DNA from: Escherichia coli | Lineage (GTDB): Bacteria > Pseudomonadota > Gammaproteobacteria > Enterobacterales > Enterobacteriaceae | Length of the DNA stretch: 64,000 bases | Assembly (NCBI RefSeq): GCF_003018255.1 | Contig: NZ_CP027440.1 | Strand: one strand, 5' to 3' | Translations under genes and position numbers: made by a program | Notes under the pieces: generated by a model | What the model saw: the letters and a program-made list of their open reading frames with translations, nothing else | The model's database searches: none | What the model was told of the DNA's origin: nothing | Shown here: piece by piece, positions 1 through 16,284 of the stretch | Numbering within the stretch: position 1 is the first letter of the stretch | Layout: every line of letters begins with the position of its first letter

Positions 1-43
1 CACTGGATAGATTATTAGCAGCATAATATGGGGTGAGGATAAT

Positions 44-67
44 GGCCGCTCCGTGCGGCCTTTTGAT
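44..67 (+). terminator. GC-rich hairpin GGCCGC-TCCGT-GCGGCC followed by TTTT; likely intrinsic terminator of the upstream plus-strand gene
   Basis: Inverted repeat plus T-run read directly at 44-64; abuts the yniB stop codon (67-69 on minus strand). Confidence 0.5.
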
Positions 68-603
68 TAAATAAACCCCAGCAGAGAAAAGAACACATAA
101 CCTGCAGCAATACAAATAACCGGCAGGATATACAGCGAGAAAAACTGCAGGAAAATAGTATGGTGCGGCACAACAATACGTGACTCAATTTGTTCACGCG
201 TTAGCCCCTCTTCCCCTTTGGCTTTTTCCAGAATGAGTTGATCTTCAACACCTTCCCGCAAGAAGCGCGCCTGGCGACTCATCCGGGCACCGGAATCCTG
301 CAACGCCAGTCCGACAAAAATCAGGAAGAAAATCACCCAGAACATAACGTTCACGCCACCATTAAAATTGGGCGTCGGGGAGTTATACCAGAACAGATTC
401 AAAAAAGGCGTATTCGCCTGCATCATATCGATCATGACATGAGTAAAGTCGAGCATGACCGCATTAATGCCTTCCTGGTTTTCCTGCCGGGTATTCATAA
501 ATTTAAGCAAAGAAATCAATGTAGAGATCAATGCAGGTATAAAAATCACCCAACCCAAAATCCTTTTCAAAACAGCAATGCGTCCAGCTTGTTGATACGT
601 CAT
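67..603 (-). CDS. yniB: inner membrane protein YniB
   Basis: 178-aa ORF, multiple hydrophobic segments; matches recalled YniB length and position upstream of yniC. Confidence 0.8.
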   Translation of the reverse strand: MTYQQAGRIAVLKRILGWVIFIPALISTLISLLKFMNTRQENQEGINAVMLDFTHVMIDMMQANTPFLNLFWYNSPTPNFNGGVNVMFWVIFFLIFVGLALQDSGARMSRQARFLREGVEDQLILEKAKGEEGLTREQIESRIVVPHHTIFLQFFSLYILPVICIAAGYVFFSLLGFI

Positions 604-749: not shown

Positions 750-1418
750 ATGTCAACCCCGCGTCAGATTCTTGCTGCAATTTTTGATATGGATGGATTA
801 CTTATCGACTCAGAACCTTTATGGGATCGAGCCGAACTGGATGTGATGGCAAGCCTGGGGGTGGATATCTCCCGTCGTAACGAGCTGCCGGACACCTTAG
901 GTTTACGCATCGATATGGTGGTCGATCTTTGGTACGCCCGGCAACCATGGAATGGGCCAAGCCGTCAGGAAGTAGTAGAACAAGTTATTGCTCGTGCCAT
1001 TTCACTGGTTGAAGAGACGCGTCCATTATTACCAGGTGTGCGTGAAGCCGTTGCGTTATGCAAAGAACAAGGTTTATTGGTGGGGCTGGCCTCCGCGTCA
1101 CCGCTGCATATGCTGGAAAAAGTATTGACCATGTTTGATTTACGCGACAGTTTCGATGCCCTCGCCTCGGCTGAAAAATTGCCTTACAGCAAGCCGCATC
1201 CGCAAGTATATCTCGACTGCGCAGCAAAACTGGGGGTTGACCCTCTGACCTGCGTGGCACTGGAAGATTCGGTAAATGGCATGATCGCCTCTAAAGCAGC
1301 CCGCATGCGTTCCATCGTCGTTCCTGCGCCAGAAGCGCAAAATGATCCACGTTTTGTATTAGCAAACGTCAAACTCTCATCGCTGACAGAACTCACCGCA
1401 AAAGACCTTCTCGGTTAA
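750..1418 (+). CDS. yniC: HAD-superfamily sugar phosphatase (2-deoxyglucose-6-phosphatase HxpB/YniC)
   Basis: 222-aa ORF with N-terminal HAD motif I (FDMDGLLIDSE); RBS aaggagag upstream. Confidence 0.85.
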   Translation: MSTPRQILAAIFDMDGLLIDSEPLWDRAELDVMASLGVDISRRNELPDTLGLRIDMVVDLWYARQPWNGPSRQEVVEQVIARAISLVEETRPLLPGVREAVALCKEQGLLVGLASASPLHMLEKVLTMFDLRDSFDALASAEKLPYSKPHPQVYLDCAAKLGVDPLTCVALEDSVNGMIASKAARMRSIVVPAPEAQNDPRFVLANVKLSSLTELTAKDLLG

Positions 1419-1529
1419 TGACCAGGGGGCAGTGATCACACTGCCCCTGGTTCTTTATCTGAATTTGCATTCAACTGACGGATTAATCGCCAATTTAAGA
1501 GAAAGAGTTACACCGTCACCACTTCCGTG

Positions 1530-1567
1530 CACTGTATAAAAACCCTATACTGTACGTATCGACAGTT
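1530..1567 (+). promoter_or_regulatory. Tandem overlapping LexA (SOS) boxes upstream of ydjM
   Basis: CACTGTATAAAAACCCTATA (1530-1549) and TACTGTACGTATCGACAGTT (1548-1567); second is a perfect CTGT-N8-ACAG box, ends 15 bp before the ydjM ATG. Confidence 0.8.
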
Positions 1568-1581
1568 TAGTGAGTTTTATC

Positions 1582-2172
1582 ATGACGGCGGAAGGTCACC
1601 TTCTCTTTTCTATTGCTTGTGCGGTATTTGCCAAAAATGCCGAGCTGACGCCCGTGCTGGCACAGGGTGACTGGTGGCATATTGTCCCTTCCGCAATCCT
1701 GACGTGTTTGTTACCGGACATCGATCACCCAAAGTCGTTTCTTGGGCAGCGATTAAAGTGGATATCAAAACCAATCGCCCGCGCTTTTGGGCATCGTGGT
1801 TTTACCCACAGTCTGCTGGCGGTATTTGCGCTGCTGGCAACCTTTTACCTTAAGGTTCCTGAAAGCTGGTTCATTCCGGCTGATGCGCTACAAGGAATGG
1901 TGCTGGGTTATTTGAGCCACATACTTGCCGATATGCTGACACCCGCCGGTGTTCCCCTGCTCTGGCCATGCCGCTGGCGTTTCCGCTTGCCTATCCTGGT
2001 TCCCCAAAAGGGCAACCAACTGGAACGTTTTATCTGCATGGCATTATTTGTCTGGTCGGTATGGATGCCCCATTCATTACCCGAAAACAGCGCTGTCCGT
2101 TGGTCATCGCAAATGATCAATACCTTGCAGATCCAGTTTCATCGGCTTATTAAGCATCAGGTTGAATACTAA
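1582..2172 (+). CDS. ydjM: SOS-regulated inner membrane protein YdjM
   Basis: ORF 1570-2172; start placed at ATG 1582 (MTAEGHLLF...); LexA boxes immediately upstream. Confidence 0.85.
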   Translation: MTAEGHLLFSIACAVFAKNAELTPVLAQGDWWHIVPSAILTCLLPDIDHPKSFLGQRLKWISKPIARAFGHRGFTHSLLAVFALLATFYLKVPESWFIPADALQGMVLGYLSHILADMLTPAGVPLLWPCRWRFRLPILVPQKGNQLERFICMALFVWSVWMPHSLPENSAVRWSSQMINTLQIQFHRLIKHQVEY

Positions 2173-2304: not shown

Positions 2305-3696
2305 ATGAACTTTCCATTAATTGCGAACATCGTGGTGTTCGTTGTACTGCTGTTTGCGCTGGCTCAGACCCGCCATAAACAGTGGAGTCTGGCGAAAAAA
2401 GTGCTGGTGGGTCTGGTGATGGGTGTGGTTTTTGGCCTCGCCCTGCATACCATTTATGGTTCTGACAGCCAGGTACTTAAAGATTCTGTACAGTGGTTTA
2501 ACATTGTTGGTAACGGCTATGTTCAACTCCTGCAAATGATCGTTATGCCGTTAGTCTTTGCCTCTATTCTGAGCGCGGTTGCCCGTCTGCATAACGCATC
2601 ACAGTTAGGCAAAATCAGTTTTCTGACCATCGGAACGCTTTTGTTTACCACACTGATTGCGGCGCTGGTCGGTGTGCTGGTCACCAACCTGTTTGGTTTG
2701 ACGGCTGAAGGTCTGGTTCAGGGTGGTGCAGAAACTGCACGTTTGAACGCCATCGAAAGTAACTATGTTGGTAAAGTCTCTGACCTGAGCGTTCCGCAGC
2801 TGGTCTTGTCCTTTATCCCGAAAAACCCGTTTGCCGATTTGACCGGAGCCAATCCGACGTCAATTATCAGCGTGGTAATTTTTGCCGCATTCCTCGGCGT
2901 AGCTGCGCTGAAGCTGCTGAAGGATGATGCGCCGAAAGGTGAACGCGTCTTAACCGCTATCGATACCCTGCAAAGCTGGGTGATGAAACTGGTTCGCCTG
3001 GTCATGCAGCTGACCCCTTACGGCGTTCTGGCGCTGATGACCAAAGTGGTTGCAGGTTCTAACCTGCAAGACATCATCAAACTGGGAAGTTTCGTTGTCG
3101 CGTCCTACCTCGGTCTTCTGATTATGTTTGCAGTGCATGGCCTTCTGCTGGGTATTAATGGCGTGAGCCCGCTGAAGTACTTCCGTAAGGTATGGCCAGT
3201 ACTGACGTTTGCCTTTACCAGCCGTTCCAGTGCTGCGTCTATCCCACTGAATGTGGAAGCACAAACGCGTCGACTCGGTGTTCCTGAATCCATCGCCAGT
3301 TTCGCCGCCTCTTTCGGTGCAACCATTGGTCAGAACGGCTGTGCCGGTTTGTATCCGGCGATGCTGGCGGTGATGGTTGCGCCTACGGTTGGCATTAACC
3401 CGATGGACCCGATGTGGATTGCGACGCTGGTCGGTATTGTTACCGTTAGTTCCGCAGGCGTTGCCGGTGTCGGTGGTGGTGCAACTTTCGCCGCACTGAT
3501 TGTGCTGCCTGCGATGGGCCTGCCGGTAACGCTGGTGGCATTGTTAATCTCCGTTGAACCGCTTATCGACATGGGTCGTACGGCGCTAAACGTTAGTGGC
3601 TCGATGACCGCTGGCACGCTGACCAGCCAGTGGCTGAAGCAAACCGATAAAGCTATTCTGGATAGCGAAGACGACGCCGAACTGGCACACCGTTAA
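2305..3696 (+). CDS. tcyP: L-cystine transporter (sodium:dicarboxylate symporter family) TcyP/YdjN
   Basis: 463-aa polytopic membrane ORF; RBS caggagaacgggg upstream. Confidence 0.85.
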
Positions 3697-4188: not shown

Positions 4189-6450
4189 ATGTCGCAACAT
4201 AACGAAAAGAACCCACATCAGCACCAGTCACCACTACACGATTCCAGCGAAGCGAAACCGGGGATGGACTCACTGGCACCTGAAGACGGATCTCATCGTC
4301 CAGCGGCTGAACCAACACCGCCTGGTGCACAACCTACCGCCCCAGGGAGCCTGAAAGCCCCTGATACGCGTAACGAAAAACTTAATTCTCTGGAAGACGT
4401 ACGCAAAGGCAGTGAAAATTATGCGCTGACCACTAACCAGGGCGTGCGCATCGCCGATGATCAAAACTCACTGCGTGCCGGTAGCCGTGGTCCAACGCTG
4501 CTGGAAGATTTTATTCTGCGCGAGAAAATCACTCACTTTGACCATGAGCGCATCCCGGAACGTATTGTTCATGCACGCGGATCAGCCGCTCACGGTTATT
4601 TCCAGCCATATAAAAGCTTAAGCGATATCACCAAAGCGGATTTCCTCTCAGATCCGAACAAAATCACCCCAGTATTTGTACGTTTCTCTACCGTTCAGGG
4701 TGGTGCTGGCTCTGCCGATACCGTGCGTGATATCCGTGGCTTTGCCACCAAGTTCTATACTGAAGAGGGTATTTTTGACCTCGTTGGCAATAACACGCCA
4801 ATCTTCTTTATCCAGGATGCGCATAAATTCCCCGATTTTGTTCATGCGGTAAAACCAGAACCGCACTGGGCAATTCCACAAGGGCAAAGCGCCCACGATA
4901 CTTTCTGGGATTATGTTTCTCTGCAACCTGAAACTCTGCACAACGTGATGTGGGCGATGTCGGATCGCGGGATCCCGCGCAGTTACCGCACCATGGAAGG
5001 CTTCGGTATTCACACCTTCCGCCTGATTAATGCCGAAGGGAAGGCAACGTTCGTACGTTTCCACTGGAAACCACTGGCAGGTAAAGCCTCACTCGTTTGG
5101 GATGAAGCACAAAAACTAACCGGACGTGACCCGGACTTCCACCGCCGCGAGTTGTGGGAAGCCATCGAAGCAGGCGATTTTCCGGAATACGAACTGGGCT
5201 TCCAGTTGATTCCTGAGGAAGATGAATTTAAGTTCGACTTCGACCTTCTTGATCCAACTAAACTTATCCCGGAAGAACTGGTGCCCGTTCAGCGTGTCGG
5301 CAAAATGGTGCTCAATCGCAATCCGGATAACTTTTTTGCCGAAAACGAACAAGCAGCATTCCATCCAGGTCATATTGTTCCTGGTCTGGACTTCACCAAT
5401 GATCCCCTGTTGCAGGGACGTTTGTTCTCTTATACCGATACACAAATCAGTCGTCTTGGTGGGCCGAATTTCCATGAGATTCCGATTAACCGTCCGACCT
5501 GCCCTTACCATAATTTCCAGCGTGATGGCATGCATCGTATGGGGATCGACACTAACCCGGCGAATTACGAACCGAACTCGATCAACGATAACTGGCCGCG
5601 CGAAACACCGCCGGGGCCGAAACGCGGCGGTTTTGAATCATACCAGGAACGCGTGGAAGGCAATAAAGTTCGCGAGCGCAGCCCATCATTTGGCGAATAT
5701 TATTCTCATCCGCGCCTGTTCTGGTTAAGTCAGACGCCGTTCGAGCAGCGCCATATTGTTGATGGTTTTAGTTTTGAGTTAAGCAAAGTAGTACGCCCGT
5801 ATATTCGTGAGCGCGTTGTTGACCAGTTGGCGCATATCGATCTTAACCTTGCGCAGGCGGTAGCAAAAAATCTCGGTATTGAGCTGACTGACGATCAACT
5901 GAATATTACGCCGCCACCGGACGTCAACGGGCTGAAAAAAGATCCTGCGTTAAGTCTGTACGCCATTCCTGACGGTGATGTGAAAGGTCGCGTGGTAGCG
6001 ATTTTGCTTAATGATGAAGTGAGATCGGCAGACCTTCTGGCCATTCTCAAGGCGCTGAAGGCCAAAGGCGTTCATGCCAAACTGCTCTATTCCCGAATGG
6101 GTGAAGTGACTGCGGATGACGGTACGGTGTTGCCTATAGCCGCTACCTTTGCCGGTGCGCCTTCGCTGACGGTCGATGCGGTCATTGTCCCTTGCGGCAA
6201 TATCGCGGATATCGCTGACAACGGCGATGCCAACTACTATCTGATGGAAGCCTACAAACACCTTAAACCGATTGCGCTGGCAGGAGACGCGCGCAAGTTT
6301 AAAGCAACAATCAAGGTCGCTGACCAGGGTGAAGAAGGGATTGTGGAAGCTGACAGCGCCGACGGTAGTTTTATGGATGAACTGTTAACGCTGATGGCAG
6401 CACACCGCGTGTGGTCACGTATTCCTAAGATTGACAAAATTCCTGCCTGA
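4189..6450 (+). CDS. katE: catalase HPII (large-subunit monofunctional catalase)
   Basis: 753-aa ORF with catalase core sequence; RBS aaggagacgag upstream. Confidence 0.95.
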
Positions 6451-13810: not shown

Positions 13811-13830
13811 ACACTGGATAGATAACCAGC
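13811..13830 (+). promoter_or_regulatory. LexA (SOS) box upstream of cho
   Basis: ACACTGGATAGATAACCAGC: CTGG-N8-CCAG palindrome, a non-canonical SOS box variant, 15 bp before the cho start. Confidence 0.7.
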
Positions 13831-13844
13831 ATTCGGAGTCAACA

Positions 13845-15345
<1,501 letters not shown>

Positions 15346-16110: not shown

Positions 16111-16284
16111 AAAGAAAATTTGATGGAGAGTAATGAGAGAATATTACAACACGATGATTTTGCAGAGATTATGAAGAACTATACCGGATGACTGGTGATA
16201 AATAAAGCAAATAACCAGGATTAATCTGTATTAATTTATAAGAAAGTAACTTAATACCCGCAGAATGATTTCTGCGGGTAAGTA

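Follow-up and report, generated by a model that had tools for sequence, protein, structure and literature searches.

A full LexA palindrome and a distal half-site upstream of ydjM in Escherichia coli

The ydjM locus

The DNA analysed here, referred to as the window, is a stretch of 64,000 nucleotides from the Escherichia coli chromosome. Bases 1300-1800 have a match of 95-100% identity in 5,423 of 5,426 complete E. coli genomes, with strain 104 at 100%, and the features annotated under this match are hxpB and "ydjM: metal-dependent hydrolase". The genes at this end of the window are yniB (67-603, minus strand), hxpB, also called yniC (750-1418, plus strand), ydjM (1582-2172, plus strand), the transporter gene ydjN/tcyP (2305-3696) and katE (4189-6450). 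This is also the gene order of K-12. Adding 1,808,629 to a window position gives the K-12 position, and b1728, the K-12 counterpart of ydjM, lies where this conversion puts it.

The ydjM open reading frame encodes 196 amino acids. It matches the Pfam family YdjM (PF04307, E 7e-36) and the NCBIfam equivalog NF008651, "metal-dependent hydrolase". Across the Enterobacteriaceae and Erwiniaceae the protein is 63-99% identical, and many of its histidine and aspartate residues are invariant. A sequence search found no relative in the PDB, and a Foldseek search of the AlphaFold model against the PDB gave no significant match, with every E-value above 1. The model is predicted to be all-helical, at moderate confidence (pLDDT 65.7). 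YdjM is a conserved membrane protein whose "metal-dependent hydrolase" annotation is by family name only. The initial annotation had called it a small membrane protein of unknown function, which is fair given that neither sequence nor fold leads to a solved relative.

The ATG at 1582 is taken to be the true start codon, because ATGACGGCGGAA there does not change among relatives, in contrast to the preceding 14 nt, which vary and carry indels.

On the other side, hxpB is followed by a terminator-like hairpin and T-run (1425-1458, plus strand; hairpin 1425-1448). The stem has 10 pairs, 7 of them G-C, and is followed by GGTTCTTTAT. In Escherichia this terminator-like element would isolate ydjM from upstream transcription. 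The possibility that the LexA boxes described below serve hxpB was rejected, since hxpB, which has the same orientation as ydjM, comes before the boxes and is closed off by this hairpin.

Downstream, no terminator-like hairpin was found in the gap between ydjM and tcyP/ydjN (2173-2304), which does contain a promoter-like ATGACT-16-AATAAT at 2259-2286. It is conceivable that SOS-induced ydjM transcripts read through into tcyP. The pairing of ydjM with the transporter gene is kept as far as the Erwiniaceae in the loci looked at, while the upstream neighbour changes: it is a HAD phosphatase in Escherichia, and a short-chain dehydrogenase in Klebsiella and Pantoea.

Two overlapping LexA boxes

Two LexA-like sites, both read on the plus strand, lie directly before ydjM. 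The distal one, box A, is CACTGTATAAAAACCCTATA at 1530-1549. The proximal one, box B, is TACTGTACGTATCGACAGTT at 1548-1567, a complete CTGT-N8-ACAG palindrome around a spacer that contains G and C. The two 20-mers share the TA at 1548-1549, and 14 nt separate the end of box B from the ATG. Direct reading therefore bears out the initial annotation, which had placed two LexA boxes with a 2-nt overlap here and had called the second a perfect palindrome: the core at 1550-1565 is the only perfect CTGT-N8-ACAG in the 64-kb window.

The bare core is by itself not beyond chance, given that 0.64 occurrences are expected per window. For this reason a full-motif matrix was built that yields a heterology index (HI). 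It is based on 18 published LexA sites printed in PMC3009722, and the ydjM sites are not among these. The matrix caps the penalty for bases that were never observed in training.

Box A has an HI of 10.26 and box B one of 10.22. In a scan of both strands of the window they rank second and third, after the cho box only, so that the matrix scoring proposed along with the initial annotation makes them outliers in the window. LexA sites below about 12.6 reportedly bind and those above about 15 do not (Lewis et al. 1994). Both boxes fall in the range of functional sites, although the score of box A is flattered by the capped penalty. The table of an RNA-seq study with AZT gives an HI of 9.0 for E. 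coli ydjM. In 200 windows simulated with a Markov-1 model, 0.29 sites per window reached an HI of 10.3 or less, and none of the 200 contained a pair of such sites at an offset of 18 nt.

The best LexA box in the window is CACTGGATAGATAACCAGCA (13812-13831, HI 5.7), 13 nt upstream of a 295-aa open reading frame (13845-14732). This frame is at the position of cho, or ydjQ, which is known as an SOS-regulated nuclease gene. Since the cho box is in the training set, it serves as a positive control only. After cho and the ydjM pair, the next best site is TGCTTTATTTATCACCAGTC (16190-16209, minus strand), at HI 12.45. At the very start of the window (1-20) there is a weak LexA-like match, CACTGGATAGATTATTAGCA, with an HI of 13.45. 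It shares 16 of 20 bases with the cho box, falls in what K-12 coordinates show to be the 3' end of yniA, and probably arose by chance.

Box A is a half-site

A LexA box has a CTG-N10-CAG core within a 20-mer like TACTGTATATATATACAGTA. Only box B has this core; box A reads CTG...CTA. The difference becomes clear when the arms are scored separately, with a matrix of 36 half-sites in which true half-sites have a median HI of 3.0 and do not exceed 9.06. On the left, box A has CACTGTATAA, which is close to consensus, with its CTGT at 1532-1535 and an HI of 2.58. On the right, it has CTA in place of the required CAG, and this half scores 11.13, which is worse than every true half-site. For box B the values are 4.30 on the left and 6.69 on the right.

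The two boxes thus arrive at nearly the same total in different ways. The penalties of box A are almost all at positions 17 and 18, which would be A and G in CAG but are T and A here. Those of box B are all in the spacer, at positions 8, 9, 13 and 14 (C8, G9, C13, G14), and both of its arms are perfect. Box A is one excellent half-site joined to a non-site and does not amount to a full CTG-N10-CAG box. With the penalty for unseen bases capped, the full-site HI makes it look better than it is.

The window contains 12 half-sites with an HI of 2.58 or less, against 3.4 +/- 2.0 in Markov-1 simulations. They are mostly in coding sequence that contains CTGG or CTGT, and the excess is probably an effect of codon usage.

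Conservation of the operator

To compare the operator between species, loci were collected by a scan with the YdjM protein, using one genome per species. This gave 80 Enterobacteriaceae loci at 85-99% protein identity. Four further loci come from Erwinia amylovora, Pantoea, Klebsiella and one relative at 63% identity, which with the window makes 85 sequences.

The spacing of the two sites hardly changes. In 79 of 81 cases (the window plus the Enterobacteriaceae), the start-to-start distance of the two best LexA-like sites before ydjM is exactly 18 nt. The same phasing is seen in Erwinia, in Klebsiella and in one further relative, and the layout with this phasing is present in 83 of the 85 sequences overall. 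In Leclercia a 1-nt insertion makes it 19 nt, and in Pantoea a 1-nt deletion makes it 17.

Within the boxes, CCTATACTG (1544-1552) is invariant in all 85 sequences, and so are the CTG and the ACAG (1562-1565) of box B. The CTGT of box A is retained in 81-82 of 85. The right half of box A contains CCTATA in every sequence and never has CAG. Box B has an HI between 5.3 and 11.7, with a median of 7.7, and its variation is limited to places that LexA tolerates, namely position 6, which is T or G, and the spacer. From box B to the ATG, the 14 nt vary at an entropy of 0.5-1.75 bits. Over the 85 Enterobacteriaceae and Erwiniaceae sequences this is the pattern of a conserved operator: the arms are kept, while the spacer and the 5' UTR vary.

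In two species, Citrobacter amalonaticus S646 and Intestinirhabdus alba, the left half of box A has been lost, and box B and an intact ydjM are still present. The box B of C. amalonaticus is among the strongest variants, with an HI of 5.5.

Among E. coli there is very little variation. The 38-bp double box is one of two alleles in 5,374 of 5,426 complete genomes. The alleles differ at 1543, position 14 of box A, which is C in the window and in 1,098 genomes, and T in K-12 and in 4,276 (of the 5,426). E. whittamii has A here, and other genera most often have C. The HI of box A is little affected, at 10.26 versus 9.75.

Conservation also extends upstream of the boxes. The block GTTACA-N-CGTCAC (1507-1519, plus strand) is the same in 84 of 85 sequences at almost every position, including in the Erwiniaceae. 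Counted from the putative start discussed below, it spans about -51 to -39, and it could serve as an alternative -35, at a distance of 17 nt from YACTGT, or be bound by another regulator. Compared by eye with the consensus sequences of CRP, FNR, ArcA, sigma-32, sigma-E and sigma-54, it fitted none of them convincingly.

A putative promoter at the box junction

A strict sigma-70 consensus scan of 1380-1640 found no promoter, so the assignment that follows is based on comparative reasoning. The supplements of four transcription-start or tiling-array studies, also when searched by K-12 coordinate, list no experimental start site for ydjM. The comparison does narrow things down. Most genera have another gene upstream, and only about 10-25 nt separate its end from the conserved block, which would place the promoter inside the block.

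The block contains three candidate -10 hexamers, all of them inside the boxes: YACTGT (1530-1535), TATAAA (1535-1540) and TATACT (1546-1551). The likely -10 is TATACT, the best supported of the three on comparative grounds. It agrees with the consensus at 5 of 6 positions, follows a C at 1545 on the plus strand, straddles the box junction, and is invariant in 85 of 85 sequences. It is also kept in both lineages in which YACTGT and TATAAA are destroyed, each of which has an intact gene.

A putative weak -35, TTCCGT (1523-1528, plus strand), precedes TATACT by 17 nt. Its T1523 and T1524 show no or almost no variation, and the hexamer at this distance contains TT in all three groups: it reads TTCCGY, and by eye TTTATT in Erwinia and TTCTCA in Pantoea. 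Seven nucleotides after TATACT comes the putative transcription start, A1558 (plus strand; K-12 1810187). This A is present in 84 of 85 sequences and is followed by an invariant T, though LexA is indifferent to these spacer positions. Whichever -10 is correct, both boxes would overlap the core promoter of ydjM as it is inferred here. The choice of TATACT would also explain why the right half of box A was never "repaired", because T1546 and A1547 would be T-12 and A-11 of the -10.

The -10 preferred by sigma-S has a C at -13, which the invariant CTATACT (1545-1551) resembles. At a distance of 2.6 kb there is katE, a sigma-S-dependent gene. Folded as RNA, the putative 5' UTR showed no unusual structure (z = -0.11).

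Published SOS regulation and the strength of repression

That ydjM belongs to the SOS response is not new. It is in the LexA-regulon table of a 2019 review of the SOS response (PMC6590174). Tandem LexA sites were experimentally reported for it by Fernandez de Henestrosa et al. in 2000, according to PMC4951493. A study in Salmonella describes two ydjM SOS boxes, one 14 nt (HI 9.12) and one 32 nt (HI 12.85) before the start codon. This is exactly the geometry in the window, and the box at 32 nt is the same as box A. The ydjM::gfp fusion of that study did not fluoresce, which agrees with low expression but says no more than that. The authors of PMC4576408 note that box A is absent from RegPrecise.

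Expression data are available as well. RNA-seq after AZT showed ydjM to be induced 2.5-fold and, when wild type was compared with lexA3, to depend 8.6-fold on a cleavable LexA. With ciprofloxacin, the log2 fold change of ydjM was -0.04, 1.59 and 1.53 at 1, 10 and 25 minutes, and 2.61, 2.60 and 1.81 at 50, 75 and 120 minutes. The initial annotation had proposed control by LexA through tandem sites, and had named an absence of SOS induction as what would speak against it. The control was rightly recognised and is already in the literature: the published lexA3 comparison gives the 8.6-fold difference, and induction is visible by 10 minutes.

It had further been suggested that tandem boxes imply unusually tight repression. 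This can be examined with the 28 classical SOS genes in the AZT RNA-seq table, by regressing the log2 of their LexA dependence on HI. The LexA dependence of ydjM is 3.4-fold above the trend, which amounts to a z of only 1.2, and it is 9th of the 28. It is the highest among the seven genes whose best box has an HI of 8-10, as would be expected if a second site adds repression. Unusual tightness is not supported by these numbers, with weak boxes (HI about 10), a distal box that is only a half-site, rank 9 of 28 and early induction. What fits is a second site that contributes some repression on top of a weak primary one. Compensation for the weakness of both sites seems a better description of the pair than extra-tight control.

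In short, the double operator of ydjM has been known since 2000, and its SOS induction has been documented and repeatedly re-measured. What is added here is that the distal box is a half-site, that it coincides with a probable -10, and how deep the conservation goes.

Interpretation

Taking the sequences, scores and conservation described above together with the LexA-dependent induction in the literature, this known SOS operator probably works with one LexA dimer on box B and a second dimer anchored by the half-site in box A, so that RNA polymerase is excluded from the promoter. The first dimer would bind the full palindrome (1548-1567). The second would be anchored 18 nt upstream by the CTGT of box A (1532-1535), probably helped by contact with the first. 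TATACT (1546-1551) would then lie on the junction of the boxes and the start, A1558, at the centre of box B. Between them the two bound dimers would cover about -28 to +10, and RNA polymerase would be kept out. Upon DNA damage, RecA-stimulated cleavage of LexA would free the promoter, leading to the early induction of ydjM. In this scheme we infer the position of the promoter, the occupancy of box A by LexA and the cooperativity between the dimers; for the occupancy of box A, the source is a secondary citation. Against a second dimer it can be said that box A lacks the CAG arm, that the Salmonella box A, at HI 12.85, is near the usual cut-off, and that two species lost the left half of box A and kept the gene.

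In the main alternative, only box B is a LexA operator and box A is conserved as promoter DNA that happens to resemble a LexA half-site. Box A would then be spacer plus part of the -10, or would supply an alternative -10, YACTGT, paired with a GTTACA that precedes it by 17 nt. On its right side box A is a non-site in all 85 sequences, its left half is lost in two species, and the window has 12 good lone half-sites, so that such sites are not rare. The whole 75-bp block (1507-1567) is conserved, so that conservation alone does not single out LexA, and the GTTACA-17-YACTGT spacing is kept in the Enterobacteriaceae and Erwinia. However, of the 10 positions in the LexA half-site consensus the conserved bases of box A fit 9-10, a better match than that of the median true half-site, and their register relative to box B is fixed. 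Species without YACTGT keep an intact gene, which makes it unlikely that YACTGT is the essential -10. In C. amalonaticus, which lost the left half of box A, the strong box B (HI 5.5) hints at compensation. Tandem binding sites are moreover stated to have been experimentally reported for ydjM, in PMC4951493. On balance we consider it unlikely that box B acts alone.

The promoter could also be further upstream, at CTGAAT-17-ATTAAT (1459-1487), with LexA blocking elongation at about +37 to +74 downstream. Genomic SELEX did place a "constitutive promoter" that binds sigma-70 holoenzyme in the yniC-ydjM spacer, and the hexamers picked by that study in K-12, CTGAAA-17-ATTAAT, have this sequence as their counterpart in the window. 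The choice of hexamers was computational, though, inside a low-resolution peak. The region 1459-1487 is not conserved outside Escherichia, and the closeness of the upstream gene to the block in most genera (about 10-25 nt) would put the promoter inside the block. An elongation block therefore seems very improbable. That both matches are chance resemblances with no regulatory role can practically be dismissed. The bare core may be expected 0.64 times per window, but the full-motif scores are outliers, the pair appeared in 0 of 200 simulated windows, the sites are invariant across two bacterial families, and the published lexA3 dependence had already refuted the idea.

A more novel reading is put forward tentatively and at less than even odds. 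Instead of two boxes, ydjM may have a conserved "one-and-a-half-site" operator: a full palindrome plus an upstream half-site, in a fixed 18-nt phase, with an embedded -10, contact between the dimers and possibly a second input. If so, the -10 would, by its T-12 and A-11, inevitably abolish the distal box's second arm, and repression would proceed via dimer-dimer contact at about 1.7 helical turns, unlike in the colicin and lexA operators. The GTTACA-N-CGTCAC block might then add a second regulatory input.

As a discovery the ydjM operator has little value, as the gene is a textbook-listed SOS gene whose tandem sites date from 2000. A modest residual value lies in a repressor site and a -10 element that share bases, and in a weak-plus-half-site operator that is fixed across two enterobacterial families. 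On the biological role of YdjM the operator sequence is uninformative.

Comparison with known tandem operators

The closest known case is ydjM of K-12 itself. Its tandem boxes (1810159-1810196, upstream of b1728) are the same locus, with the same 20-mers and the same 2-nt overlap. One base differs, which is 1543, T in K-12 and C in the window.

A YdjM-family gene is also controlled by LexA in a distant phylum. In Staphylococcus aureus, a gene of the PF04307 type is part of the SAOUHSC_02424 operon, as described in a review (PMC11442139). By that description the gene has a single box of the Gram-positive type, CGAAAATATGTTCG, and the operon comprises three genes.

Other operators resemble ydjM in their layout. 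Like ydjM, the cea gene of ColE1 is preceded by two LexA sites that overlap at their ends. In colicin operators two dimers bind and keep expression off, and no detectable basal expression is described. PMC4951493 contrasts the tandem sites of ydjM with those of colicin genes, where a strong and a weak site overlap at their ends. Scored with the same matrix, the ColE1 cea boxes have HI 4.5 and 8.6. They start 15 nt apart and their 20-mers overlap by 5 nt. The ydjM boxes, by contrast, are phased at 18 nt instead of in the colicin manner, both are weak (HI about 10), and one of them is a half-site. The response also differs, as ydjM is up 3-fold by 10 minutes of ciprofloxacin, whereas the colicin pattern is late.

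The operator of lexA is similar to that of ydjM in another way: it belongs to a chromosomal SOS gene whose start codon is closely preceded by two LexA sites side by side. The lexA boxes are both full sites, with HI 4.9 and 7.8, and start 21 nt apart, or two helical turns, which leaves a 1-nt gap. Those of ydjM start 18 nt apart and overlap. The tandem layout of ydjM is therefore neither of the colicin nor of the lexA type, but follows the same principle.
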